Made by a program: the position numbers and the translations under genes. DNA of 63,132 nucleotides, counting the filler. It is 7 parts of 7 records of this genome, joined end to end, with 100 filler letters (N's around TTAATTAATTAA, not from the genome) between each part and the next. Parts side by side here need not be neighbours in the genome. Positions count along the whole stretch, not along the records: positions 49,924 to 57,751 come from SRR31156797_18831; 6 more parts are not named here. The stretch is one strand, 5' to 3'. The notes under the pieces are model-generated. The model ran no database searches. It was given only the letters and a program-made list of their open reading frames with translations, and was not told the origin of the DNA. This document shows positions 10,952-57,851 of this stretch, piece by piece. Positions within the stretch are counted from its first letter, which is position 1. Every line of letters begins with the position of its first letter.

Positions 10952-11051
10952 NNNNNNNNNNNNNNNNNNNNNNNNNNNNNNNNNNNNNNNNNNNNTTAAT
11001 TAATTAANNNNNNNNNNNNNNNNNNNNNNNNNNNNNNNNNNNNNNNNNNNN
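10952..11051. other. Artificial contig linker (Ns + TTAATTAATTAA)
   Basis: 100-bp N spacer with six-frame stop; composition and gene content change across it. Confidence 0.99.
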
Positions 11052-18778: not shown

Positions 18779-18878
18779 NNNNNNNNNNNNNNNNNNNNNN
18801 NNNNNNNNNNNNNNNNNNNNNNTTAATTAATTAANNNNNNNNNNNNNNNNNNNNNNNNNNNNNNNNNNNNNNNNNNNN
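18779..18878. other. Artificial contig linker
   Basis: Ns + TTAATTAATTAA. Confidence 0.99.
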
Positions 18879-18930: not shown

Positions 18931-20163
18931 TTAATTTCTTGCAGCAATCTCAGTAAAAGCGTCAATCTCTTTTTCCAATTGGTCTTTTTCAACCAGCCCA
19001 TTAATCAAATCTTCAGGAATCTCATCGGTTATAGCACCCACAAGCAAACCCAACACCATTCCACGATGCACATTGTCACCTCCGATGTTCACATTTTTCA
19101 AGAGTGAGGTTTTAAAATCGAAATTGTTCATCCATGCGGTATGCAACAAAAGTGGAGTTCCATGTTCCAGGTAGCAGGCTATCGAGAATATCTTTTTCTG
19201 AACTTTGGCTTCACTGTTTTCCTCAGCAAACTTTTCAATATTCCAGGCTTCTTTTTGATATGCTGTATGTAATTCCCACATCGCATCCTTCGGGACCTTA
19301 GGCATACCACCGTGTTTTTCATATTCACGCCACAACTCCAGGCCGGTATATTTGGGGAGATGCATTTTTGCCGTATTAGATTTAAAGGTGTCAACGGGAT
19401 CAAAACCTTTGAGAAGCTGGCTGAACAATGGCACCAGCACCGAAAGTGAAGATGCTATATTTTCGGATCGATGAGTCAGGTTTTGATGTTCAAGGGCAAA
19501 CCCGAGGCCCTTTAAATCATCATCATAAAGTAACGATAAAACCAACGGCCTGATCAATCCACCCAAACCATTTATTCCGGGATTGTTGTATTGATTGGCT
19601 GCACAGGCATAAGCCGGATAGCCTTTCGAGTAATTTTCGAACCAGGCACGAATGTAACCTTCCGTGTAAGGATCTTTTACGTTATCCTGAGTGGTCATAA
19701 ACCCAACAAATTCTTCTAAAAACCTGACCTGATCGTATTTTCCGTTTAAAATTATATGACGCATGAGCAACCGCACCAAATGGGCATTCAACGTATTTTC
19801 GCCTGCCTCCAGGCCATGATGGTAATGATAGCGGTCTTTTTCGGCAATCATGCCCTTTTCATCCTTTTCAAATCCTGACGATTCAAAATCGGTGTAGGAG
19901 GTGTTGTAGAATTTTGCATGTTCGTGGAGGATATCATATTTCCGGTTGTGTTTTTTCGCTGTATCAACATCGGGTTTATAGCTCGCTCCCACCATAAAAG
20001 CCCCCACATGTGGATGCTTTGGGGCTTCATATTTTTCAATAGGCCCACCAAAAGTTTTTGGGATAAGGGTTACATTGTAATACCAGTGTGCTGGCATGGC
20101 CAACGCGTCACCAATGAACAAACCCCACAGGGCATTTTTAATTCGCTGTTTATCGACTTGCAT
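18931..20163 (-). CDS. ADP-ribosylglycohydrolase family protein, non-canonical
   Basis: IGDALAMPAHWYY, LTHR, GGDNVHRG. Confidence 0.8.
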   Translation of the reverse strand: MQVDKQRIKNALWGLFIGDALAMPAHWYYNVTLIPKTFGGPIEKYEAPKHPHVGAFMVGASYKPDVDTAKKHNRKYDILHEHAKFYNTSYTDFESSGFEKDEKGMIAEKDRYHYHHGLEAGENTLNAHLVRLLMRHIILNGKYDQVRFLEEFVGFMTTQDNVKDPYTEGYIRAWFENYSKGYPAYACAANQYNNPGINGLGGLIRPLVLSLLYDDDLKGLGFALEHQNLTHRSENIASSLSVLVPLFSQLLKGFDPVDTFKSNTAKMHLPKYTGLELWREYEKHGGMPKVPKDAMWELHTAYQKEAWNIEKFAEENSEAKVQKKIFSIACYLEHGTPLLLHTAWMNNFDFKTSLLKNVNIGGDNVHRGMVLGLLVGAITDEIPEDLINGLVEKDQLEKEIDAFTEIAARN

Positions 20164-20268
20164 GATTTTGAATTTATTGACTTGTTATCTCTTGGTCAAA
20201 CAAACCAATAAAATCATACAATGTTTAGAATTCGCAGGGTTGGGATCAATAAAATGCCGAAAAGGAAA

Positions 20269-20835
20269 TCAGGAAATAATCAGGTCATCCAAACTCCTTT
20301 TGGGTACATGATGAACACTATTTTTATCACGCCAGTATTTGATATCGCCGTTTTCGCTCTGCTCTAGCATAACAGATTCCTTTGGTTTGCCAAGGGCGAT
20401 TACCAGAGAGATATCTAAATGTTCAGGCAGATTGAGCATTGATTTAAGTTTCGCCCGATTTACGGAGCCGATTATACAACCACCTAATCCTTCCTCAACT
20501 GCTCCGAGCAGCATACTTTGGGCTGCAATTCCCTGGTCGTGCTTAACCTGTTCTTTGATGGTTTTATCTACCAAAACCACGATATAAGCTGATGGCCGCT
20601 CTCCATCTTCCGGGCCGGGCCAGTCTTTTAGGTAGCCTGCCCACGAAAGACACGAAAATATTTCTGCATTTCTCTTATTCTGATTGGAGATATAAAATTT
20701 CAACGGTTGTAAATTTCCACCTGATGGCGATAGCCTTGCCAGTTCAATAAGCCCAAGCATTGTTTTACGGTCAATGGTAACGTCCTGAAAAAACCGCCTG
20801 TAACTTCTGTTTCTTGTGATTAATTCCTCTATCAT
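20269..20835 (-). CDS. Nitroreductase family protein
   Basis: NRSYRRF, SPSGGNLQP, DQGIAAQSMLLGA, VPKR. Confidence 0.9.
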   Translation of the reverse strand: MIEELITRNRSYRRFFQDVTIDRKTMLGLIELARLSPSGGNLQPLKFYISNQNKRNAEIFSCLSWAGYLKDWPGPEDGERPSAYIVVLVDKTIKEQVKHDQGIAAQSMLLGAVEEGLGGCIIGSVNRAKLKSMLNLPEHLDISLVIALGKPKESVMLEQSENGDIKYWRDKNSVHHVPKRSLDDLIIS

Positions 20836-20844
20836 GAAGATGTA

Positions 20845-21255
20845 TTATTTAAATATTGATTCCGAAACAGTGATGGTAAACATGGGTTTATCCCTGAACT
20901 TATCCTGCCCGACCATGATCTCATACTCCCAGCCACCTTTATCAAACACCAGCTTATAGTAAGTTTTGCCGCCGGTTGTATCCACAAGAAATTTATGCCC
21001 CAATTTTCTTTCATAAAAAACAGGTACGCTGTCGCGGATTTCAACAGTAAATGAAACGGAAGCGGGTTCGGTCTTTCGGGGGATTTCCCGGTCGCGGTCA
21101 TCGGTAAAAAATAAAACCATTTCGGATCCGGGGTAAATGGGAATATTCAGGAATCTTTCCAAACGCTCGGTTTCGGTGAGGTTTTCGTTATAAGAATTAC
21201 AGGAAAGTAATATAGATAAAAATACTAGCGCAAACAATTTAACCTTTGGTTTCAT
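20845..21255 (-). CDS. Hypothetical lipoprotein
   Basis: Bacteroidota lipobox LLSC after a hydrophobic leader; IPIYPGS motif. Confidence 0.7.
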   Translation of the reverse strand: MKPKVKLFALVFLSILLSCNSYNENLTETERLERFLNIPIYPGSEMVLFFTDDRDREIPRKTEPASVSFTVEIRDSVPVFYERKLGHKFLVDTTGGKTYYKLVFDKGGWEYEIMVGQDKFRDKPMFTITVSESIFK

Positions 21256-29510: not shown

Positions 29511-29610
29511 NNNNNNNNNNNNNNNNNNNNNNNNNNNNNNNNNNNNNNNNNNNNTTAATTAATTAANNNNNNNNNNNNNNNNNNNNNNNNNNNNNNNNNN
29601 NNNNNNNNNN
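29511..29610. other. Artificial contig linker
   Basis: Ns + TTAATTAATTAA. Confidence 0.99.
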
Positions 29611-36219: not shown

Positions 36220-36319
36220 NNNNNNNNNNNNNNNNNNNNNNNNNNNNNNNNNNNNNNNNNNNNTTAATTAATTAANNNNNNNNNNNNNNNNNNNNNNNNN
36301 NNNNNNNNNNNNNNNNNNN
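36220..36319. other. Artificial contig linker
   Basis: Ns + TTAATTAATTAA. Confidence 0.99.
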
Positions 36320-46263: not shown

Positions 46264-47184
46264 ATGGCTATTATCGCAGTAGGACACAAAAACCCCGATA
46301 CCGATACCATTGCATCCGCAATCGCAATTGCTGACCTCTGGTCCAAAGCAAAAGAAGAAACCAAAGCTGTTGCACAGGGCGAACTTGCTCCTGAAACCGC
46401 TTTTGTTCTTGAAAAATTCGGTTGCGTTGCTCCCGAAATCATGACCGATGCTACCGATCAGAAAGTTATCCTCGTTGACCACTCTGACATTGCTCAGTCC
46501 ATGGACAACCTTGATAAGGGTGAAGTTGTAGCAGTAGTTGATCACCACAAACTTGGTGACGTAACTACCCCCAACCCCCTCGAAATGTGGGTATGGCCTG
46601 TAGGCTGCACCGGTACCGTTATCAACGCAATGTACAAGTTCTACAATGTAGAAATCCCCAAGAACATTGCTGGCGTACTTCTCTGTGCAATCCTGTCTGA
46701 CACCGTTATGTTCAAGTCCGTAACCTGCACCGAAGCTGACAAAGAAGCTGTTGCAGAACTGGCTAAGATTGCAGGTGTTGAAGACGTTATGGCTCTCGGA
46801 ATGGAAATGTTCAATGTTAAGTCCGCAGTTGCCGGTGCTTCCATGAATGAACTCATCTTCCGTGACTACAAAGATTTCGACATGTCCGGCAAAAAAGTTG
46901 GCATCGGCCAGCTTGAAGTTGTTGATCTGTCCGTTTTTGATAATATTAAAGATGACCTTTACGCTGAACTTGAAAAAGTTAAAGCTGACGGCCGTCACAG
47001 CTGCTTCCTGCTGCTGACCGACATCATGAAAGAAGGCTCTGAAATGCTCATCGTTTCCGACGACGCTTCTGTTGTTGAAAAAGCATTCGGCGTTGCTCCT
47101 GAAGGTACCAAAGTATACCTCGAAGGCGTAATGTCCCGCAAAAAGCAGGTTGTACCTAACTTTGAGAAAGCTTTCTCCGCATAA
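46264..47184 (+). CDS. ppaC: Manganese-dependent inorganic pyrophosphatase (family II)
   Basis: GHKNPDTD, VDH, DHH, ILSDT, SRKKQVVP. Confidence 0.96.
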   Translation: MAIIAVGHKNPDTDTIASAIAIADLWSKAKEETKAVAQGELAPETAFVLEKFGCVAPEIMTDATDQKVILVDHSDIAQSMDNLDKGEVVAVVDHHKLGDVTTPNPLEMWVWPVGCTGTVINAMYKFYNVEIPKNIAGVLLCAILSDTVMFKSVTCTEADKEAVAELAKIAGVEDVMALGMEMFNVKSAVAGASMNELIFRDYKDFDMSGKKVGIGQLEVVDLSVFDNIKDDLYAELEKVKADGRHSCFLLLTDIMKEGSEMLIVSDDASVVEKAFGVAPEGTKVYLEGVMSRKKQVVPNFEKAFSA

Positions 47185-48279: not shown

Positions 48280-48630
48280 ATGGGCAGTAGATGCCTTTTG
48301 AAGTCGAAAATTCACAGAGCAACCATTACCGACGCTAATGTCGATTATGAAGGTTCTATTTCAATTGATGTGAATCTGCTTGAAAAAGCAGGAATCCTTC
48401 CCTTTGAACGAGTCGATGTTCTCAATGTCGATAATGGGGAAAGGCTCACCACTTACGCCATTGAGGGCGGTCCTGGTGAGTTTTGTCTGAATGGTGCAGC
48501 AGCACATAAGGGCGAGGCCGGACAGAAAATTATTATCTGCTCCTATACATGGCTGGATGAAGACGAACTTGGGCTTCATAAGCCACAAGTTGTCCTTCTC
48601 GGTGACGGAAATAAGGTCAAGAAAGCATAA
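48280..48630 (+). CDS. panD: Aspartate 1-decarboxylase
   Basis: KSKIHRA, YEGSI cleavage site, NGERLTTYAI, LNGAAAH. Confidence 0.96.
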   Translation: MGSRCLLKSKIHRATITDANVDYEGSISIDVNLLEKAGILPFERVDVLNVDNGERLTTYAIEGGPGEFCLNGAAAHKGEAGQKIIICSYTWLDEDELGLHKPQVVLLGDGNKVKKA

Positions 48631-49823: not shown

Positions 49824-49923
49824 NNNNNNNNNNNNNNNNNNNNNNNNNNNNNNNNNNNNNNNNNNNNTTAATTAATTAANNNNNNNNNNNNNNNNNNNNN
49901 NNNNNNNNNNNNNNNNNNNNNNN
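49824..49923. other. Artificial contig linker
   Basis: Ns + TTAATTAATTAA. Confidence 0.99.
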
Positions 49924-49924
49924 T

Positions 49925-50209
49925 CTGGTGGATGCTGAGTTTCATCTCCAAATTGCGTCAATCACGCGGAATGGATCGCTTGAGAATATGTTGAGGATAA
50001 ATCTTGAACATGTAAACCTCCGGTTCCGTTTGGATCATTGCGATGCCGGCAGGATGCCGACGGCGCTTCAAGAGCATCGGGATTTGGTTAAAGCCATAAA
50101 GCAGAAGGATGTACTGAAAAGCATTGACATTGTGAGGATGCACGTACGAAGGGGAAGAGATACTTGTATCAATTGCCTTTCGACGGATGAAGATACGATT
50201 AATCTGTAG
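49925..50209 (+). CDS. GntR family regulator, FCD C-terminal fragment (5' truncated)
   Basis: DAEFHLQIA...N..L...EHRDLVKAI...HV pattern. Confidence 0.85.
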   Translation: MVDAEFHLQIASITRNGSLENMLRINLEHVNLRFRLDHCDAGRMPTALQEHRDLVKAIKQKDVLKSIDIVRMHVRRGRDTCINCLSTDEDTINL

Positions 50210-50246
50210 AAAACAACAGTTTCTCGGTTGTTGGGGGTAGTCATAT

Positions 50247-51923
50247 ATGGGTTCGGGCGATATACAAAAGGCTTTCGAAAAATGGCAAGGCACAACACTC
50301 AAAAGAGTGCTTGATAAATCTGCGGAAAGAGAAAAGGCCTTTGCTACCGAAAGCGGCATTCCTGTTAAGAGACTTTATACGCCTTCAGACCTCGAGCATA
50401 CGGATTACAACAAGGATCTCGGTTTCCCCGGGGAAGAACCCTATACGAGAGGCGTCTATCCCACCATGTATCGCGGACGTCTCTGGACCATGAGAAACTA
50501 CGCGGGGTTCGGGACTGCCGAGGATACGAACAAGCGATTTCGTTACCTCCTGGAGCAGGGCATGCCGGGATTGTCGGTGGCATTTGATCTCCCCACCCAG
50601 CTTGGATATGACTCAAATGATCCCGTGGCCGAGGGTTCTGTTGGGAGGGTGGGAGTTGCGGTAGACACATTGGCTGACATGGAAATAATTTTCAAAGACA
50701 TTCCTTTGGACAAAGTTTCCACCTCCATGACAATCAATGCGCCGGCTACGGTCCTTCTGGCCATGTATATGGTGGTGGGAGAGAAGCAAGGCATTCCAAA
50801 AGAAAAACTAACAGGCACAACCCAGAATGATATCCTGAAAGACTTCATCGCCCGAGGCACCTACATTTTCCCCCCCGAACCGAGCATAAGACTCTGCCTG
50901 GACATTATTGAATATTGCTACAGACATGTTCCCAGATGGAATACGCTGAGCATAACGGGATATCATATCAGAGAAGCTGGTGCCAATGCCATACAAGAAC
51001 TGGCCTTTACCCTTGCAAATGCAATCACTTACATAGAAAAGGCCCAAGAGAGGGGCCTCCATGTGGACGAATTTGCTCCCCGATTGTCATACAGCCTTGG
51101 ATGTCATAGAGACCTTTTTGAGGAAGTGGCGAAATATCGTGCGGCCAGAAGATTGTTTGCAAAGATCATAAAGAAGCGTTTTAAGGCAAAAAATCCCAAA
51201 AGTTTTCTTTTCAGGACCTATAGCGGATCGTGCGGCTCTACCCTGATTACACAGCAACCGTTAAATAACATCGCTCGGGTGACCATGCACGCGCTTATGG
51301 GGATCCTTGGCGGGCATCAGGCGATTCATACCGCCTGCTGGGACGAGGGGTATGCCATCCCCACCGAAGATTCGGCCATGATTGCGCTTAGGACCCAACA
51401 GATCCTGGCCCATGAAAGCGGTCTCACCAAAACCATCGATCCATTGGCAGGTTCATACTATGTGGAATCCCTGACCGATGAAATTGAGAAGAGGGCATCC
51501 GAATATCTTGAGAAAATAGACCGGATGGGGGGGATGCTCAAGGCCATAGAAAACGGATTTGTATTCCAGGAAATTCAGGAATCAAGTGTTCAATTTCAGA
51601 AGGAAGTGGATAGCGGTGAAAAGGTTATCGTGGGTCTGAATAAATTTACCATTCCGGAAGAGGAAGACTTTGAGGAACAGGATATTTTTGAAACAGACTC
51701 AAGAGTTGAGAACTTGCAGAAAGAAAAACTCGAAAAGGTGAAGGCTGAAAGGAATGGAGAAGATGTTGAATCGGCCATGGGTGAATTAAAAAAGGCCATC
51801 GACAGTGACGAGAATCTCATGCCCTTCATTATTGAGGCGGTGAAACATTATGCCACTCTCGGGGAGATCTGTCAGGTGATGAGAGAAAAGTGGGGAGAGT
51901 TCAAGCCCACTACCTATATCTAA
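50247..51923 (+). CDS. B12-dependent acyl-CoA mutase, large (substrate-binding) subunit, methylmalonyl-CoA mutase family
   Basis: PYTRG, GLSVAFDLPTQ, SMTIN, QNDILK, ARGTY, GYHIREAG, ALRTQQI, DPLAGSY. Confidence 0.93.
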   Translation: MGSGDIQKAFEKWQGTTLKRVLDKSAEREKAFATESGIPVKRLYTPSDLEHTDYNKDLGFPGEEPYTRGVYPTMYRGRLWTMRNYAGFGTAEDTNKRFRYLLEQGMPGLSVAFDLPTQLGYDSNDPVAEGSVGRVGVAVDTLADMEIIFKDIPLDKVSTSMTINAPATVLLAMYMVVGEKQGIPKEKLTGTTQNDILKDFIARGTYIFPPEPSIRLCLDIIEYCYRHVPRWNTLSITGYHIREAGANAIQELAFTLANAITYIEKAQERGLHVDEFAPRLSYSLGCHRDLFEEVAKYRAARRLFAKIIKKRFKAKNPKSFLFRTYSGSCGSTLITQQPLNNIARVTMHALMGILGGHQAIHTACWDEGYAIPTEDSAMIALRTQQILAHESGLTKTIDPLAGSYYVESLTDEIEKRASEYLEKIDRMGGMLKAIENGFVFQEIQESSVQFQKEVDSGEKVIVGLNKFTIPEEEDFEEQDIFETDSRVENLQKEKLEKVKAERNGEDVESAMGELKKAIDSDENLMPFIIEAVKHYATLGEICQVMREKWGEFKPTTYI

Positions 51924-51951
51924 AAGTCTTTGAAAACCTGGGAAATACGTA

Positions 51952-52353
51952 ATGAAAAAACGAAAAATAAGAATATTAATTGCAAAGGCCGGACTTGACG
52001 GCCATGACCGCGGGGCCAAAATTGTAGCCCGGGCATTGAAAGATGCGGGTATGGAAGTTATTTATACGGGCCTCAGACAATCCGTGGATCAAGTGGTTAG
52101 CGCAGCGGTTCAGGAAGATGTGGATGTGGTGGGCCTCAGTTTCCTTTCAGGGGACCATCTGATCTTGCTTCCGAAAGTGGTTCAGCGGCTGAAAGAACAG
52201 GGGAAAGGGGACGTTACTATTCTGGCGGGTGGCATAATATTAAAACGCCACATACCGGACCTTGAAAAGATTGGGGTGAAAAAGGTTTTTTTACCTGGCA
52301 CGTCTCCAGGAAAGATCGTTGGGTACATTGAGGATAATGTCTACCGGTCATGA
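51952..52353 (+). CDS. Acyl-CoA mutase small subunit (cobalamin-binding domain)
   Basis: [18 protein letters not shown]. Confidence 0.95.
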
Positions 52354-52434
52354 GGTGATTACCCAATCTTAAAGATGCAATCTGTTGGTGCGGATTGTTC
52401 CTTTTTCGGCCAAAAACAAAAGGGAGGTCGGTTT

Positions 52435-53562
52435 ATGTATTCTTTGCCATTTTCCTCGGAGGAATACGGGGAAAGACTTAAGAAAGTCAGACAGCGGATG
52501 TGGGAGGAGGGGTTAGACGCCATCATCCTTACCAGGGCTCAGAACATCTATTGGGTGGGGGGATACCGGGCGGCCGTCATGAACTGGACCCTCCCGCTCC
52601 TGGCGCTGGTCATCCCTCAAAAAGGTGAGATGCGTTTCCTGACCCGCGTCATTGAAAGCGCTACTGCTGATACCCAGTTGGCCCCAAACCCGAGGAAGTA
52701 CAAGGATCATGAGAAACCATATGACATCCTGGCCGAGCTTGTCCGGGAATGTGTGGCGGAATCGGATACTGTGGGTGTGGAAGAGTCCTTTATGACCGTT
52801 TCGCAGCTGAATCTGATGAAACAGGCCCTCCCTGATGCCAATTTCAAGGACGTCAGTTGGCTTGTGGAAAATATAAGGATTACGCTATCGGAACAGGAGG
52901 TCGCCTATTTCAGAAGGGCAGCCGAAGTCACGAATATCGGATTTTCACGGGGTCTTGAACTCATGAAGGCGGGGGTGTACCCCTATGAAATGATCGGGGA
53001 GATGCAAAATGCCATGTATCAGGCAGGTCAATCCGATGTGGAGGTTCCCAAAATGTGGATCTGGTCGGGGCCGGAAGGGGGCTTGATGCACGACACCGCC
53101 GTCAACCGCCGGATAAAAAAGGGAGACCTGGCCACCATGGAAGTTTGGGGGACGGACTGTCAGTACCTGGTGGGCGCCCAAGGGACCGTTTTTCTTGGAG
53201 ACGCGCCCGGTATGGAAGTTTTGGACGAACAAAAACTCGTGTCGGAGATGTATCTGGCGGCAAAAGAGGTTTTGAAGCCGGGGGCCGTTTCCGGAGATGC
53301 GTATGGGGCCGCCAACAAGGTCTACCGGTCTGCCAAGGGTGAAGATTACTGGCGAAGGGTAGGGGCGAACATGGGGTTGACATTCGGCCCTGTGGATATG
53401 GGTATGACGGGAGATCACATTCTTGAGCCCTGGACCCCGTTTATTCTTCAGATAGTAGAGGTGAAGCCGGTCTTGGCAACCTGTTGCAGTACCCTTCTTG
53501 TGACTGAGTCCGGTTGTGAGGAACTGACCCCGCCTCTGCTCGAGCTAAAATGTCTCGCCTGA
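52435..53562 (+). CDS. M24/creatinase-fold hydrolase (ectoine hydrolase/creatinase-like)
   Basis: FSSEEYGERL creatinase N-terminal domain, pita-bread domain (MHD..NRRIKKGD, LLVTESGCEELT); ATG after GGGAGG. Confidence 0.82.
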   Translation: MYSLPFSSEEYGERLKKVRQRMWEEGLDAIILTRAQNIYWVGGYRAAVMNWTLPLLALVIPQKGEMRFLTRVIESATADTQLAPNPRKYKDHEKPYDILAELVRECVAESDTVGVEESFMTVSQLNLMKQALPDANFKDVSWLVENIRITLSEQEVAYFRRAAEVTNIGFSRGLELMKAGVYPYEMIGEMQNAMYQAGQSDVEVPKMWIWSGPEGGLMHDTAVNRRIKKGDLATMEVWGTDCQYLVGAQGTVFLGDAPGMEVLDEQKLVSEMYLAAKEVLKPGAVSGDAYGAANKVYRSAKGEDYWRRVGANMGLTFGPVDMGMTGDHILEPWTPFILQIVEVKPVLATCCSTLLVTESGCEELTPPLLELKCLA

Positions 53563-53660
53563 AAACCACGACCCAAAGTTTGATAACACTTTTAAATTGT
53601 ATGATGAATGACAAACGAAACCATTTTAGCTTCTAATTCTTAGTGAGGGAGGTAGGAAAA

Positions 53661-54347
53661 ATGAGTCAGAAGGCCTGGCAAAAAGGGCTTGAGAAAATTC
53701 CTCAAGCAGTGGGGGAATTCCCCGTGGATCCGAAAAACATGGCCCTGCTGGTGATCGACATGCAGTATTACGTTGCTCATCCCGATTACGGCGTATTGAA
53801 GAACTTTATTGAGGCAGACCCCGAATCAGCGCAGTATTATTGCGATCGGTTGAAAATAGCGGTTCCCAACTGCGCCAAACTCCTTGATTGTTTCCGAAAA
53901 AACAAAATGCGCATCTTTTACGGCGCCTATGGCGCTTCGCTGCTTGACGGAAGCGATCTACACCCCCTCCGGCAGGCGAGGCTGAAGGAAGTTCCGTCCT
54001 TTACGACGGAGGACTTTGAATTCAAGGTCCTGGAAGAAGTCAAACCCCAGCGAGGGGAGTTGGTGGTTCCGAAATCGACCCGCAGCGCCTTTACGGGTAC
54101 CTCCCTTGACCACAGGATGAGAATGAGCGGCATCGAGACCGTTGTGGTGGTCGGCGTCGCCACGGACGTATGTGTTAGCAGCACCGCCAGAGGGGCCTGG
54201 GATCTTGGGTTCAAGGTCATTCTGATTGACGATGCTTCCGCGACCTTTACCGAGGAAGATCAGGTTTACACCATGAGAAACTGGGCTGCGTTCTTCGGCA
54301 AGGTCATGGACACGGACGAACTCGCTTCGATCCTCAATGAGCAGTAA
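53661..54347 (+). CDS. Isochorismatase-family cysteine hydrolase (amidase)
   Basis: Asp-Lys-Cys triad: VIDMQ, PKSTRSAF, GVATDVCV. Confidence 0.9.
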   Translation: MSQKAWQKGLEKIPQAVGEFPVDPKNMALLVIDMQYYVAHPDYGVLKNFIEADPESAQYYCDRLKIAVPNCAKLLDCFRKNKMRIFYGAYGASLLDGSDLHPLRQARLKEVPSFTTEDFEFKVLEEVKPQRGELVVPKSTRSAFTGTSLDHRMRMSGIETVVVVGVATDVCVSSTARGAWDLGFKVILIDDASATFTEEDQVYTMRNWAAFFGKVMDTDELASILNEQ

Positions 54348-54380
54348 ACGCCAACTCTTAATTTTTCAGGAGGCAAAAAA

Positions 54381-54701
54381 ATGATTTATCTGCATGTTAC
54401 GGTTCAGGTTCACCGCGGCAAGATGAACGAGTGGACCAAGATTTTCCGGGAACACCTGCTGCCGGCCATGGAGAAACACGGGCAAAGGCTGGTGGCGGCA
54501 TGGAAGACCAGCGTAGGCCTTTATGACGAGGTGACGGATCTTTACGCCTTTGAAGATTTTACCGAGTTCCAGAAGATTCGGGAAAAGCTCTTCAATGAAC
54601 CGGAAGTTCAGAAATGGTTGCCGATTATCTATGAAATCACGGGGAAAGAGGAAAGCAAGATCCTTTCCCCTTTGGGGTATGGCGAAATGACCAAAGAATA
54701 G
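54381..54701 (+). CDS. NIPSNAP family protein
   Basis: 106-aa ferredoxin-like pattern GKM..W...G.RLVAAW...G..DEV..LY...ESKILSP. Confidence 0.75.
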   Translation: MIYLHVTVQVHRGKMNEWTKIFREHLLPAMEKHGQRLVAAWKTSVGLYDEVTDLYAFEDFTEFQKIREKLFNEPEVQKWLPIIYEITGKEESKILSPLGYGEMTKE

Positions 54702-54721
54702 AAGCGGGGTCTTAAATAAGG

Positions 54722-54757
54722 GAACGCCCCGCCTTCCCTTGGTAAGGCGGGGCGTTT
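54722..54757. repeat. GC-rich intergenic hairpin
   Basis: AACGCCCCGCCTT/AAGGCGGGGCGTT inverted repeat inside the operon. Confidence 0.65.
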
Positions 54758-54780
54758 CGTCCAGTCAATTGCGTGGAGGG

Positions 54781-56310
54781 ATGAAGATGCATTTACGGGA
54801 AGTTCTGCTTCGTGAGGCCCGTCGGAACTCGCGGATGGATGCCTTTGTCTATGGGGATCGAAGAATCACTTTCTCACAGCTCAAAGAGAGGGCGTGCAGA
54901 TTGGCCAATGCACTCTCCACTTTGGGAGTCGGGAGAGGGGACCGTGTCGGCATCCTTCTTTTTAACTGCTTAGAGTATCCTGAAATTTTGTGGGCCAATT
55001 TTCTATTGGGGTCCGTGGCCGTCACCCTCAATTTCCGGCTTGTTTCCGAAGAGATTGTTTATGTGCAGGACGTGGCCCAGTTGAAGGTACTAATCCTGGG
55101 GACCGAATTTCTGGACAGGGTCGACCCGGTAAGAGACCGTCTTCCCGGCATTGAAAAATATGTCTGCCTCGGAAAAGAGAAATCACAAGGGACCCTCGAC
55201 TACCATGAATTGGTGGAAAAAGGGAGTGTAATCCTTCCACCTGTTTTGGGCGACGACCGGGATGCCGCCGTAGTCCTGTTCACTTCCGGCACAGCGGCAT
55301 TCCCCAAGGCTGTTGTTCTCACTCACCAAAACCTCATAACGGCGGGCCTCGTCTGGGCCACGGACGTGGGCATAAGGCATGGGGATAACTGCCTTGTGGT
55401 CACCCCCTTCTATCACATCGGGGCCGTGGGCTACCATGTGGCCCACGCCATGTGCGGCGCATCTACCACCTGTTTCCCCCAGCCGAACTGGGATCCTGAG
55501 CTTTTTCTCAGAACCGTGGAGAAAGAAAAAGTTACCTACCTGTATATAACCCCCGGCATGTATCGTCAGGTTTTTTCGGTGCCGGATTTCAGGGAATATG
55601 ATCTCCGTTCATGGCGGGTATGCATAACGGGATCGGAACCTGTTCCCAGGGCAACCGTGGAAGAGATGGCCGAGAACCTTCCCTACGGCAGGATCTATAA
55701 TGAATACGGTTTGACCGAGGCTTCGGGTCCCACGGTATCGGTTGCCAAGCACGAGATGGCCATTGCCAAGGCCCCTTCCGTGGGACGGCCCTTTATTAAT
55801 ACGGACATCCGGATTATGGATGAAAGCGGCCATGAATGCGAGATAGGCCAGGTGGGGGAGATCGTTGTAAAAGGGGATCAGGTGATGAAAGAATATCTGA
55901 ATGATCCCGATACAACCGCGAAAACCCTCAAGGACGGCTGGCTTTATACGGGCGATCTGGGAGAAATGGATGACGAAGGGTTCCTGTACGTGGTGGACAG
56001 GAAAAAAGACATCATCATCAGCGGTGGTGAAAATATCTCATCGGTTGAGGTGGAGTCCACCCTCTATAAGCATCCCAAGATCATGGAGGCCGCCGTCATA
56101 GGCGTACCCGATCCGAAGTTCGGAGAAGGGGTGTGCGCGGTTGTTGTGTCGCGGGAAGGGGAGCGTATTTCGGAGCAGGAGGTCGTGGATTATTGTAAAG
56201 AATATCTTGCGAGCTTCAAAAAGCCCAGAAAGGTTATTTTCACGGATGCCTTGCCTCGAAATCCCTCGGGAAAAGTCCTTAAAAGGGATCTAAGAAAAGC
56301 ATATGCATAA
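54781..56310 (+). CDS. AMP-forming acyl-CoA ligase
   Basis: FTSGTAAFPK, YGLTEA, TGDLG, DRKKD, SGGENI, PRNPSGKV. Confidence 0.92.
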   Translation: MKMHLREVLLREARRNSRMDAFVYGDRRITFSQLKERACRLANALSTLGVGRGDRVGILLFNCLEYPEILWANFLLGSVAVTLNFRLVSEEIVYVQDVAQLKVLILGTEFLDRVDPVRDRLPGIEKYVCLGKEKSQGTLDYHELVEKGSVILPPVLGDDRDAAVVLFTSGTAAFPKAVVLTHQNLITAGLVWATDVGIRHGDNCLVVTPFYHIGAVGYHVAHAMCGASTTCFPQPNWDPELFLRTVEKEKVTYLYITPGMYRQVFSVPDFREYDLRSWRVCITGSEPVPRATVEEMAENLPYGRIYNEYGLTEASGPTVSVAKHEMAIAKAPSVGRPFINTDIRIMDESGHECEIGQVGEIVVKGDQVMKEYLNDPDTTAKTLKDGWLYTGDLGEMDDEGFLYVVDRKKDIIISGGENISSVEVESTLYKHPKIMEAAVIGVPDPKFGEGVCAVVVSREGERISEQEVVDYCKEYLASFKKPRKVIFTDALPRNPSGKVLKRDLRKAYA

Positions 56311-56346
56311 GTGAGAAATGAGAATGTCCGAAAAGGTTTGATGATT

Positions 56347-57714
56347 ATGAATGGGGGAATCAAAAAACTGTTTGAACCTGAATCCATCGCCATGGTGGGC
56401 GTGTCCGGCGAACCAAACAAGATGAGCCACTGGCTCATTCGGAACGTTGCGGAGGCGGGGTTCGAGGGGGCTGTCTACCCTATTAGCCGCAGGGGCGGTC
56501 AAAACCTCGGTTATAGGGTGTACGGAGATTTGAATGAAGTTCCCGAGCCGGTGGATCTTGTACTGGTGAGTGTTGCCAGCAAATTTGTAAAAGATACCAT
56601 TGAAGAAGCAGCCCAAAACAAGGCAGGCGCCGCGGTTATACTCAGTTCGGGGTTCGGGGAGATTCGAGACAAGGCCGGGAAGATTCTCGAGGAAGAGATC
56701 CGGCAGATTGCACGCGAAAACAACATGCGGATTATGGGGCCCAATTGCCTTGGCGTTTATAATGCACACAAACGATTGAACGGAACATACTTTGCCAAGA
56801 CGCCTAAACATAAAGGTAAAATATCTTTGGTTTCGCAGAGCGGGGCTTACGCCGGGGTGCTTGTTGATGAAATGAACCGGCGAGGCATGGGCTTAGGAAA
56901 AATGGCCAGTATCGGGAACCAGATGGATGTCCGGCATCAGGACGTTGTCGAATACCTGGCGGATGACCCGGATACCGACGTTATCGGCCTTTTTGTGGAA
57001 GGGGTCAAGGACGGTTCCGGTTTCCTTTCGGTTGTCAAAGCGGTTTCCAGGATCAAGCCCATCGTTATCCTGAAGGGGGGCCGCACCGATGCGGGTTCAA
57101 GGGCCGTTGTCTCCCATACGGGATCTCTGGCGGGAGATTTCAGGGTGGCCAAGGCCGCTTTTGCTCAGGCCGGCGCTCTTGTGGCAGAAACCACTGAGGA
57201 TTTTCTGGACTATCTGTTTGCCCTTTCCCATAACCGTCAACAACTGCCGGGGGACGAGAGATTGGCCATCGTAACCATTTCAGGAGGACCTTGCGTTGCC
57301 GCCAGCGACTATTGTGAGGAACTGGGCCTTAAAGTACCCGAGTTGGGTGAGGACACCAGAGAGAAACTCCGGGAATACATCCCCTTTTTCGCAGCGGATT
57401 CAAATCCTGTGGATATGACCGTCGGTATCCCCTTGGAGAATATCGGCCCGTGCGTGGATGCGGTAATTTCCGATCCTGATATTTCAGGGGCCATCGCCAT
57501 TAACTGGGGATGGGATGTGAAGGAATTCGCCGATGCTTTTGTTGATGCATCAAAAAGACACAAAAAACCTGTCCTTGCCTTTGCAAGTGAGAATCCAACG
57601 GTCCAGGACATCTTTCGCAGGGGCGGCATTATTAATTTCCCCGCACCTGAAAGAGCTGTAAAGGCCTATTGGGGTCTCCTACAGTACCGAAAAGTGATCG
57701 ATAAAAAATCATAG
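56347..57714 (+). CDS. ADP-forming acyl-CoA synthetase alpha subunit (AcdA-like)
   Basis: CoA-binding domain, GPNCLG, SQSG, SHTG phospho-His, ISGG, NPVD; start uncertain (56311-56347). Confidence 0.88.
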   Translation: MNGGIKKLFEPESIAMVGVSGEPNKMSHWLIRNVAEAGFEGAVYPISRRGGQNLGYRVYGDLNEVPEPVDLVLVSVASKFVKDTIEEAAQNKAGAAVILSSGFGEIRDKAGKILEEEIRQIARENNMRIMGPNCLGVYNAHKRLNGTYFAKTPKHKGKISLVSQSGAYAGVLVDEMNRRGMGLGKMASIGNQMDVRHQDVVEYLADDPDTDVIGLFVEGVKDGSGFLSVVKAVSRIKPIVILKGGRTDAGSRAVVSHTGSLAGDFRVAKAAFAQAGALVAETTEDFLDYLFALSHNRQQLPGDERLAIVTISGGPCVAASDYCEELGLKVPELGEDTREKLREYIPFFAADSNPVDMTVGIPLENIGPCVDAVISDPDISGAIAINWGWDVKEFADAFVDASKRHKKPVLAFASENPTVQDIFRRGGIINFPAPERAVKAYWGLLQYRKVIDKKS

Positions 57715-57725
57715 AAGGAGGTTTT

Positions 57726-57751
57726 ATGAAAAAGTTCGATTATTATCAACC
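57726..57751 (+). CDS. Start of next gene, possibly a xanthine-dehydrogenase-family FAD-binding subunit
   Basis: AAGGAGG RBS then MKKFDYYQ(P); only 8 codons visible. Confidence 0.45.
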
Positions 57752-57851
57752 NNNNNNNNNNNNNNNNNNNNNNNNNNNNNNNNNNNNNNNNNNNNTTAAT
57801 TAATTAANNNNNNNNNNNNNNNNNNNNNNNNNNNNNNNNNNNNNNNNNNNN
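57752..57851. other. Artificial contig linker
   Basis: Ns + TTAATTAATTAA. Confidence 0.99.

Follow-up and report, generated by a model that had tools for sequence, protein, structure and literature searches.

The 63,132-nucleotide stretch of DNA analysed here (the window) contains, at positions 49925-57751, a tightly spaced run of genes for a two-subunit acyl-coenzyme A (CoA) mutase that depends on B12, a creatinase-fold hydrolase, a cysteine amidohydrolase, a NIPSNAP protein and CoA-activating enzymes, and related loci carry the same set together with the genes of a molybdenum (Mo) enzyme. On balance, and with confidence somewhat better than even, we read this cluster as an operon with which anaerobic Desulfobacterota would degrade a carboxylic acid bearing a nitrogen-containing ring (or a cyclic amide or imide), by a logic like that of the iaa pathway of indoleacetate degradation but with different ring hydrolases; with the same modest confidence, the contig would represent the first two thirds of that operon. 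Such an anaerobic route is probably one not yet described. An earlier reading of this DNA, made from the letters alone (the sequence-only reading), had proposed a pathway in which hydroxylation, ring opening, deamidation, CoA activation, a B12-dependent rearrangement and an ATP-yielding release of CoA follow one another. This interpretation stands in part, since hydroxylation, two hydrolytic steps, CoA activation and B12-dependent rearrangement form a coherent conserved set, whereas the order of the steps is probably another one and the ATP-yielding release lacks support.

A gene set conserved through rearrangement

Positions 49925-57751 are exactly one entire 7.8-kb contig between two artificial joints of the window. 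According to open reading frame (ORF) calls and Pfam and NCBIfam assignments, its genes are all on the + strand, with intergenic gaps of 11-81 bp, and the eight genes that the sequence-only reading had named as a co-directional run were all found. The contig start cuts a gene for a GntR/FCD regulator, of which the 3' part remains (49925-50209, with FCD at 49928-50209; PF07729 FCD, E 1.1e-10); this piece, the C-terminal 94 residues, aligns at 77.7% identity with residues 135-228 of the 228-residue GntR protein of the nearest related locus, L011, and full-length orthologues combine a GntR helix-turn-helix with the FCD domain. There follow the large, substrate-binding subunit of the mutase (558 residues, 50247-51923; PF01642, 703 bits; TIGR00641, 751 bits), its small B12-binding subunit (133 residues, 51952-52353; PF02310, 85 bits; TIGR00640, 150 bits against a cut-off of 57), and a 375-residue hydrolase with Creatinase_N and Peptidase_M24 domains (PF01321, 75 bits; PF00557, 52 bits), referred to below as M24, the gene for which ends at 53562 and probably starts at 52435, within an ORF that opens at 52375. 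Next come an isochorismatase-family cysteine amidohydrolase (the amidase) of 234 residues, or perhaps 228 if translated from the second Met (53643-54347; PF00857, 126 bits), and a NIPSNAP protein of 106 residues (54381-54701; PF07978, 53 bits).

The gene that follows encodes an AMP-forming acyl-CoA ligase of the FadD type (523 residues as listed, with AMP-binding and AMP-binding_C domains), which ends at 56310 and starts at 54739 or 54781. A G+C-rich perfect palindrome with a 13-bp stem lies between the NIPSNAP and ligase genes (54723-54756) and overlaps the listed TTG start at 54739, which makes the ATG at 54781 the likelier start; the palindrome itself may form an intra-operon RNA hairpin at a sub-operon boundary. 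The alpha subunit of an ADP-forming acyl-CoA synthetase (467 residues, 56311-57714; CoA_binding_2, Succ_CoA_lig and Ligase_CoA_2) is the last complete gene product, and from 57726 to 57751 runs the start of a gene for a protein beginning MKKFDYYQP, of which eight codons and two bases are present before the contig ends.

Relatives were collected with M24. A scan of reference genomes returned one Desulfobacteraceae metagenome-assembled genome (MAG), in which a 5.1-kb contig stops just after M24; an orthologue of the synthetase alpha subunit is absent from this MAG (1.7 Mb, incomplete), where the best match is 36% identical. When 209 genomes of the order to which the MAG belongs were searched in six frames, 2 were found to encode an M24 orthologue. 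In a protein collection the M24 family comprised 56 clusters at E<=1e-20, with most full-length members 374-377 residues long; all 56 are of metagenome or MAG origin, a part of them bearing the label Deltaproteobacteria or Desulfatiglandales. The ESM Atlas yielded only unnamed M24 clusters, mostly of Actinomycetota, and a metagenome scan with an alignment of 26 M24 proteins yielded 80 loci. ORFs were called in all loci and grouped by BLAST, and the groups were labelled from Pfam and NCBIfam. Clade A, in which M24 is 68-95% identical, consists of 32 loci, namely 30 of the 80 metagenome loci, the contig G172:C296 of a 5.1-Mb Desulfobacterales genome (G172) and the window contig; 17 of the 32 are treated as long, these being 16 relatives of at least 8 kb and the window contig, counted in at 7.8 kb.

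In L011, M24 is 95% identical, and the window contig is along its full length colinear with this locus at 88.5% nucleotide identity. The gene order there is the same as in the window and then continues with the flavin adenine dinucleotide (FAD; 286 residues), 2Fe-2S (181 residues) and Mo/molybdopterin (797 residues) subunits of a Mo enzyme, followed on the opposite strand by a family III CoA-transferase. The FAD subunit of L011, which starts MKKFDYYQPETLKEA and carries PF00941 and PF03450, is the orthologue of the MKKFDYYQP gene product. The cut gene thus encodes a subunit of a molybdo-flavoenzyme, a molybdenum hydroxylase of the CoxMSL/XDH family, as the sequence-only reading had guessed, and neither of the two outcomes which that reading had named as refuting its proposal was observed.

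Across the 17 long loci, the amidase and NIPSNAP genes are each found in 16, the two mutase subunits and the ligase in 14 each, the Mo, FAD and 2Fe-2S subunits and the CoA-transferase in 12 each, and GntR in 10; a glyoxalase-fold protein resembling an epimerase is present in 8, and a carboxyltransferase and the synthetase alpha subunit in 5 each. The misses are mostly contig ends. The amidase gene lies directly downstream of M24 in 22 of the 23 loci with room for it, the sole exception being L020, where the crude gene call has a long antisense ORF. Furthermore, the genes occur in at least three orders: arrangement A is that of the window; in arrangement B a Liv-type ATP-binding cassette (ABC) transporter and the ligase diverge from M24-amidase-NIPSNAP, with the Mo enzyme and the mutase on the other strand; and two further shuffles are seen in G172:C296 and L033. 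Linkage that persists through rearrangement is good evidence for a shared function, and the conservation of the set beyond this one contig, on which the earlier proposal turned, is thus found in clade A. The earlier remark that epimerase, carboxylase and MeaB genes are missing is true of the fragment; the first two are missing because the contig is short, and the relatives have them in the numbers given. For MeaB, tblastn with the G172 protein gave no match at E<=1e-5 in the window contig or in 33 loci, made up of the 32 of clade A and of L010, an adjoining stretch of G172.

The more distant members of the M24 family form a soil clade of 48 loci (39-47% identical), in which a type I asparaginase follows M24 in 23, a ligase is found in 8, an amidohydrolase of TRZ/ATZ type (guanine- or 8-oxoguanine-deaminase-like) in 5 and a Mo subunit in 4. 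These loci (L039-L090, from soil and other metagenomes) often also hold an unassigned binding protein and a set of ligase, hotdog thioesterase and MmgE/PrpD genes, and their Atlas neighbours are mostly Actinomycetota. Judged by its predicted genes, the soil-clade M24 locus is another undescribed cluster for nitrogen compounds.

Enzymes of the cluster and their predicted roles

Among solved relatives, the large mutase subunit scores highest against 2-hydroxyisobutyryl-CoA mutase (HCM; 4r3u, 562 bits), ahead of human methylmalonyl-CoA mutase (MCM; 495 bits) and the MCM of P. shermanii (451 bits). The equivalents of Tyr89 (RNYAGF, against RQYAGF in 1req) and Arg207 (IARGTYIFPP, against MVRNTYIYPP in 1req) are kept in 15 of 15 mutase copies from the clusters, at positions where HCM has Ile and Gln, respectively, and Ala occupies the place of Asp117 of HCM. 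We take Tyr89 and Arg207 (P. shermanii numbering) and Asp117 to be specificity residues or ligands of a carboxylate, and since the carboxylate-binding Tyr and Arg are kept, the substrate of the mutase should bear a free carboxylate. The mutase, called atypical in the sequence-only reading, departs from three core motifs: H(C/T)QT(S/A)G has become YSGSCG (RTYSGSCG in the window), LHTN has become IHT(A/S) (IHTACWDE in the window) and SFF(W/F) has become SYSL, each in 15 of 15 copies, whereas the canonical motifs are present in the PDB sequences of MCM and HCM and in the G172 mutases on contigs C414 (MCM type) and C273 (ICM type). On these motifs the protein is best classed as a distinct subfamily of the split B12 acyl-CoA mutases. 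The small subunit reads LDGHDRG, which fits the DxHxxG (His-on) motif of the cobalt ligand.

G172 has eight matches to the large mutase subunit, one of them partial. The copy on C414, the only one of its kind in G172, has the canonical MCM motifs and adjoins MmdA and an OAD-beta sodium-pump subunit; that on C273 is of ICM type (Phe/Gln) and adjoins MeaB; one is the cluster copy itself, two are its close paralogs (78-80% identical), and three more are divergent, one of these again with genes for a Mo hydroxylase, ligase and CoA-transferase next to it. A housekeeping role as MCM was therefore rejected for the cluster mutase, a canonical MCM being encoded elsewhere in G172 and the core motifs being different. 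The contigs concerned are C414, C273, C265, C37, C220, C7 and C199 (L099-L105), and all copies other than those of MCM and ICM type lie in clusters of catabolic genes. One such cluster also encodes a Mo hydroxylase, Amidohydro_2, a UbiX-like flavoprotein and a ligase; another contains PrpD, a reductase of old-yellow-enzyme type and a small mutase subunit to which an OB fold of DUF35 type is fused; and a third has an acyl-CoA dehydrogenase and an electron-transfer flavoprotein (ETF).

The Mo subunit of L011 has its best PDB match in the alpha subunit of 4-hydroxybenzoyl-CoA reductase (1rm6_A, 350 bits against 217 for the next, CoxL), its further relatives being CoxL and nicotinate dehydrogenase, and its G172 orthologue scores 692.5 bits with TIGR03194 and 617 with XdhA, so that the best family still falls short of its cut-off of 994.55. 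The 286-residue FAD subunit aligns end to end with the 287-residue CutM (3-278 with 5-281) and only in part with the 324-residue HcrB (111-275 with 152-316); the additional N-terminal stretch of HcrB is, we assume, the Fe-S-binding insertion of the 4-hydroxybenzoyl-CoA reductase beta subunit. Because the FAD subunit is without this insertion, the Mo enzyme is read as a hydroxylase, and probably acts as such, possibly on a CoA ester, rather than as a reductive dehydroxylase; a reductive HcrABC was rejected on the grounds of the CutM-like FAD subunit. Some of the relatives carry a CoxG gene.

The best NCBIfam matches of M24 are ectoine hydrolase (NF038259, 118 bits against a cut-off of 575) and TIGR02993 (96 against 613), and its nearest solved relatives are DoeA (6twk; E 3e-18, about 69 bits) and then creatinase. 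In the alignment, at what we presume to be the metal-ligand positions, the canonical Asp-Asp ligands look replaced, as they are in DoeA and creatinase. The protein is accordingly assigned, as far as similarity allows, to the non-peptidase C-N-hydrolase branch of the fold, outside both named families, and is proposed to be a ring-opening C-N hydrolase. The amidase also lies far under the cut-offs of its best families (RutB, 75 bits against 378; BiuH, 70 against 370; PncA type, 28.5 against 174), and its alignment with RutB (8bkd) covers the positions of Asp (VIDMQ), Lys (VPK) and Cys (ATDVCV), which we take to be the catalytic triad of the isochorismatase family. The NIPSNAP protein is possibly an isomerase or tautomerase. 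In both clades M24 is flanked by an enzyme that would make an oxo-heterocycle and by an amidase, which, of the arguments from context, speaks most strongly for a role of M24 in opening a ring to an amide.

The ligase just reaches the cut-off of PRK06187 (476.3 bits against 476), and its best solved relatives are FadD13, FadD5 and feruloyl-CoA synthetase. In arrangement B it is co-transcribed with the Liv-type ABC transporter, a placement which suggests that the imported compound is a carboxylic acid and is activated first; the binding protein of the ABC system has weak matches to urea-binding proteins. Together with the similarity of the Mo subunit to 4-hydroxybenzoyl-CoA reductase, the position of the ligase makes CoA activation probably the opening step, in contrast to the sequence-only reading, which had placed hydroxylation before it. 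The CoA-transferase is nearest, weakly, to succinate-glutarate and succinyl-CoA:mesaconate transferases. The synthetase alpha subunit scores 401 bits with TIGR02717 (cut-off 567), and no ORF for an ATP-grasp beta subunit is annotated in the arrangement-A loci, although one could be encoded elsewhere in the genome; the ATP-yielding release of CoA that had been proposed would thus depend on an alpha subunit seen in less than a third of the long loci and accompanied by no visible partner.

Further genes of the relatives appear to complete the route. The epimerase passes the methylmalonyl-CoA epimerase cut-off (127.9 bits against 115); for the carboxyltransferase, which falls in the mmdA subfamily, the score is 734 bits with a cut-off of 999. 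Alongside them in G172, L014 and L015 lie genes for a thiolase, a MaoC hydratase, a short-chain dehydrogenase/reductase and a PimC/PimD-like acyl-CoA dehydrogenase, and the acyl-CoA dehydrogenase genes near G172:C296 likewise look PimC/PimD-like. For a beta-oxidation set to be meaningful next to a decarboxylating carboxyltransferase, the decarboxylated product has to contain at least four carbons, and this context points to a substituted succinyl-CoA/malonyl-CoA pair, and not methylmalonyl-CoA, as what the mutase would act on.

Members of the mutase subfamily (identity of 75% or more) were found in 12 of the 209 genomes searched, against 2 for M24, a sixfold difference. A sister cluster around it was found in G177:C8 (L117), G023:C252 (L118), twice in G173 (L119, L120), in G171:C27 (L121) and at two G172 paralog loci (L099, L100). 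On one side it is laid out as acyl-CoA dehydrogenase, short-chain dehydrogenase/reductase, thiolase, carboxyltransferase and epimerase, and on the divergent side as GntR, mutase, Amidohydro_2, a nitroreductase-family protein, a small protein, ligase and a tripartite ATP-independent periplasmic (TRAP) transporter. G173:C738 has Mo-hydroxylase subunits attached, G171:C27 has a FAD-subunit-like gene alone after the acyl-CoA dehydrogenase, where the examined stretch ends, and G172:C199 has no Amidohydro_2 gene. The sister cluster is possibly a counterpart for oxygen heterocycles or aromatic acids. Since the mutase module recurs behind other upper genes, mutase, epimerase, carboxyltransferase and beta-oxidation can be regarded as a shared lower module, to which M24, amidase, NIPSNAP, CoA-transferase and ABC system would be one of several interchangeable upper modules.

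Proposed route and competing explanations

In the route that we propose, the acid would be taken up, in some relatives by the Liv-type ABC system, and converted by the FadD-type ligase to its CoA thioester, on which the HcrA-like Mo-FAD-2Fe2S enzyme, as a hydroxylase, would add an oxo group beside the ring nitrogen. M24, resembling creatinase and ectoine hydrolase, would then open the resulting lactam or imide without ATP, and the cysteine amidase would release the nitrogen as ammonia (or as part of an amide or carbamoyl fragment); NIPSNAP might isomerise what is formed. The family III CoA-transferase would place CoA on the right carboxyl of a branched di- or tricarboxylate, the B12 mutase would convert a substituted succinyl-CoA to a substituted malonyl-CoA, and the epimerase and MmdA-type carboxyltransferase would decarboxylate this, leaving beta-oxidation to complete the breakdown; the GntR/FCD protein is the likely regulator. 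Candidate substrates include cyclic imides, acids resembling indoleacetate, and carboxylates of pyridine or pyrrole (of the nicotinate or isonicotinate type), any single named one of which is improbable. In a narrower form, which we consider less likely than not, the cluster would give uncultured relatives of sulfate reducers an undescribed, ATP-sparing route for the mineralisation of monocyclic N-heterocyclic acids (carboxylates of pyridine or pyrrole, or cyclic imides), with CoA activation, HcrA-like hydroxylation, a creatinase-fold "lactam/imidase", the cysteine amidase and a B12 mutase of new specificity that straightens the branched polycarboxylyl-CoA, the same mutase serving the Amidohydro_2 sister cluster, perhaps for oxygen heterocycles.

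Several points weigh against this proposal. Each candidate considered (nicotinate, isonicotinate/citrazinate, pyrrole carboxylates, tetrapyrrole-derived maleimides, thymine/barbiturate and imidazole acetate) leaves a conserved gene unexplained or a needed enzyme missing; the mutase is not obviously needed for nicotinate-type substrates, and a reductase for ring reduction is absent from the core gene set. The likeness of the Mo subunit to HcrA, being below the cut-off, is no proof of a CoA-ester substrate, and the ADP-forming synthetase alpha subunit has no beta subunit nearby. The epimerase and MmdA-type carboxyltransferase also serve the plain propionyl-CoA/methylmalonyl-CoA route, to judge from their families, and the Tyr and Arg of the mutase are, by alignment, the specificity residues of an ordinary MCM. 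As the motifs altered in the mutase are common to the MCM, HCM and ICM types, they may concern the cofactor pocket and not the substrate, if we are right in our assumed placement of them in the structure.

The known system closest in logic is the iaa pathway, in which IaaC is a Mo enzyme of the xanthine dehydrogenase (XDH) family and IaaA/E a hydantoinase A/B-like, ATP-dependent ring hydrolase. Hydrolysis of a nitrogen ring is thus presumably common to both, but the cluster has the ATP-independent M24, the cysteine amidase and NIPSNAP where iaa has, as we take it, the hydantoinase A/B pair; no member of the hydantoinase family is found among the annotated ORFs of the loci, and the three Hydantoinase_B genes of G172 are on contigs without a mutase. 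PMC8360864 gives, for the pathway of Aromatoleum aromaticum, the ligase IaaB, the family III CoA-transferase IaaL, the mutase IaaGH and the decarboxylating dehydrogenase IaaF, and predicts iaa operons for sulfate reducers, Desulfatiglans among them. At the level of protein families only, the cluster resembles the pathway in its ligase, XDH-family Mo enzyme, family III CoA-transferase and two-subunit B12 mutase, as well as in decarboxylation, beta-oxidation and a periplasmic binding protein, and differs in decarboxylating by epimerase and MmdA-type carboxyltransferase rather than by a dehydrogenase such as IaaF, and in its GntR/FCD regulator and FadD-type ligase. The idea that the coupling itself is without precedent had to be given up: in anaerobes the iaa pathway already joins Mo hydroxylation and hydrolysis of a ring to a B12 mutase (PMC8360864). 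Nicotinate fermentation does so in another form. What may be new in themselves are the pair of creatinase-fold ring hydrolase and cysteine amidase and the distinct acyl-CoA mutase subfamily.

Other systems share single elements. DoeA-DoeB (EutD-EutE) and creatinase resemble the function predicted for the cluster in that a creatinase-fold M24 protein cleaves a ring or amidine C-N bond and a second hydrolase removes the resulting amide, but in the cluster a cysteine hydrolase of the isochorismatase family stands in place of the deacetylase, and the context is CoA-dependent and anaerobic. HcrABC and the furoyl-CoA and nicotinate dehydrogenases are likewise three-subunit Mo/FAD/2Fe-2S enzymes, with HcrA the nearest to the cluster's Mo subunit, from which HcrABC differs in the sub-cut-off score and the HcrB-specific insertion described above; the furoate pathway also pairs an XDH-family enzyme with a CoA ligase. 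The nicotinate fermentation of Eubacterium barkeri combines anaerobic Mo hydroxylation, hydrolytic ring opening with loss of ammonia and a B12-dependent carbon-skeleton rearrangement, and, unlike the cluster, uses free acids, an enamidase of the amidohydrolase fold and 2-methyleneglutarate mutase, which is not an acyl-CoA mutase. With MCM and the ethylmalonyl- and hexylmalonyl-CoA mutases of the HCM-like split class (1req, 2xij, 4r3u; PMC5719088) the cluster mutase shares the fold, the split subunits, Tyr89/Arg207 and an epimerase partner of methylmalonyl/ethylmalonyl-CoA type, and hexylmalonyl-CoA has been proposed as the substrate of split HCM-class mutases (PMC5719088); MCM, HCM and an ICM-type paralog have R(A/F)H(C/T)QT and LHTN, whereas the cluster mutase has RTYSGSCG and IHTA/SCWDE, with no MeaB gene nearby. 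In a literature search with most subscription papers outside its scope, no description was found of a creatinase/isochorismatase/methylmalonyl-CoA mutase/molybdenum gene set, no catabolic work on nicotinoyl-, citrazyl-, picolinoyl- or pyrrole-2-carboxyl-CoA, nothing relevant on nicotinate in sulfate reducers and no gene data for barbiturase/ureidomalonase clusters.

Three other functions can be imagined for the set, all of them unlikely in our estimation. In an oxidative pyrimidine route, the Mo enzyme would turn uracil or thymine into (5-methyl)barbiturate, M24 would open this to an acyl-urea and the amidase would free urea or ammonia to give malonate or methylmalonate, which the ligase or CoA-transferase would activate, the mutase then being an ordinary MCM with its epimerase and carboxyltransferase. 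The retained Tyr89/Arg207, the epimerase above its family cut-off and the mmdA-type carboxyltransferase all agree with this. So do three further points: the amidase scores best with the families of RutB and biuret hydrolase, the enzyme closest to M24 among solved structures opens a tetrahydropyrimidine ring, and the ABC binding protein weakly matches urea-binding proteins. What speaks against it is that G172 already has a canonical MCM with MmdA/OAD-beta, that the cluster mutase departs from motifs which MCM, HCM and an ICM-type paralog have in common, that C3 or C4 products need no beta-oxidation genes beside the carboxyltransferase, that the Mo subunit is nearer to a CoA-ester enzyme than to XdhA and that the ligase is transcribed with the transporter, suggesting an imported acid; known barbiturase, moreover, has another fold. 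A similarly small chance is given to a function without any heterocycle, in which the two hydrolases would have an open-chain substrate (an amide, or a guanidino or N-carbamoyl compound such as one like creatine or an N-carbamoyl amino acid), the Mo enzyme would be an aldehyde oxidoreductase and the mutase set would dispose of propionyl-/methylmalonyl-CoA formed downstream. Creatinase and N-carbamoylsarcosine amidase, both open-chain enzymes, are among the solved relatives, the XDH family includes aldehyde oxidoreductases, and the family scores of the hydrolases are all far under curated cut-offs; on the other hand, the best relatives of the Mo subunit are 4-hydroxybenzoyl-CoA reductase, then CoxL and nicotinate dehydrogenase, the soil clade couples M24 with deaminases of heterocycle type, and a ligase, a CoA-transferase and a non-canonical mutase are a heavy apparatus for a small amide.

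Slightly less probable still is a cluster for indoleacetate (auxin) in which M24 would replace the ATP-dependent hydantoinase-like lactam hydrolase, the mutase would be a (2-aminophenyl)succinyl-CoA mutase and the amidase would serve indoleacetamide or conjugates. The iaa scheme has a one-to-one counterpart for the ligase, the Mo enzyme, the ring hydrolase, the family III CoA-transferase and the two-subunit mutase, as well as for decarboxylation and beta-oxidation, and iaa operons are stated for sulfate reducers such as Desulfatiglans (PMC8360864). In L033, about 2 kb beyond the GntR end, there is also an indolepyruvate:ferredoxin-oxidoreductase-alpha-like gene (19214-21004; POR_N, TPP_enzyme_C, Fer4), seen in this one locus only. 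However, opening of an oxindole yields an arylamine and not an amide, which leaves the linked amidase (22 of 23 loci) and NIPSNAP without a role; neither an IaaF/ETF pair nor aminobenzoyl-CoA genes were seen in the loci, and the ligase is of the FadD type and not of the phenylacetate-CoA-ligase type. Because the amidase would have no task if the ring nitrogen ended as an arylamine, a monocyclic ring or an imide is likelier than indoleacetate. Very improbable, finally, is that unrelated genes, sharing no pathway, lie together by chance because the contig is short. It is a 7.8-kb piece of a fragmented bin in which G+C varies widely from contig to contig, and in a scan of the sequence promoter- and terminator-like sites were no commoner than in shuffles; yet the families stay linked in three gene orders, at 68-95% M24 identity and in 17 long loci, with tight spacing and every gene co-directional in the window, and this explanation was rejected as already contradicted by the conserved linkage across rearranged loci.

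Surroundings of the contig and significance

The window consists of seven contigs chained by six artificial N44-TTAATTAATTAA-N44 linkers (10952-11051, 18779-18878, 29511-29610, 36220-36319, 49824-49923 and 57752-57851), which separate contigs and so make gene adjacency across the joints meaningless. The flagellar genes past 57852, which belong to a separate contig, were for this reason rejected as neighbours. No Mo hydroxylase, CoA-transferase, epimerase or carboxyltransferase is found on the other contigs of the window. The preceding contig carries housekeeping genes unrelated to the operon (48280-48630, 46264-47184), among them panD (aspartate 1-decarboxylase), a manganese-dependent inorganic pyrophosphatase and a PEGA-domain lipoprotein-like gene. 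The contig at 29611-36219 has about 25-29% G+C, against 42-55% in the others, and may be mis-binned from another organism; its genes are ordinary, encoding membrane proteins of the VTT-domain and LysE kinds, a response-regulator-PAS-EAL protein and a glycosyl transferase family 3 protein.

The fate of N-heterocycles (vitamins, alkaloids, fragments of nucleobases and pigments, pollutants) in anoxic sediments is poorly known at the level of genes, and few anaerobic routes are defined. If the proposed function is correct, the gene set would provide a marker for such a route in sulfate-reducing communities, creatinase-fold hydrolases would gain a new class of substrates, and the mutase would be a candidate for a new specificity among the B12 acyl-CoA mutases, a family of which each new member (HCM, ECM, PCM) has been of mechanistic and biotechnological interest. 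Furthermore, the reuse within one lineage of a mutase-epimerase-carboxyltransferase-beta-oxidation module behind varied ring-opening modules would amount to a testable design rule for anaerobic degradation.

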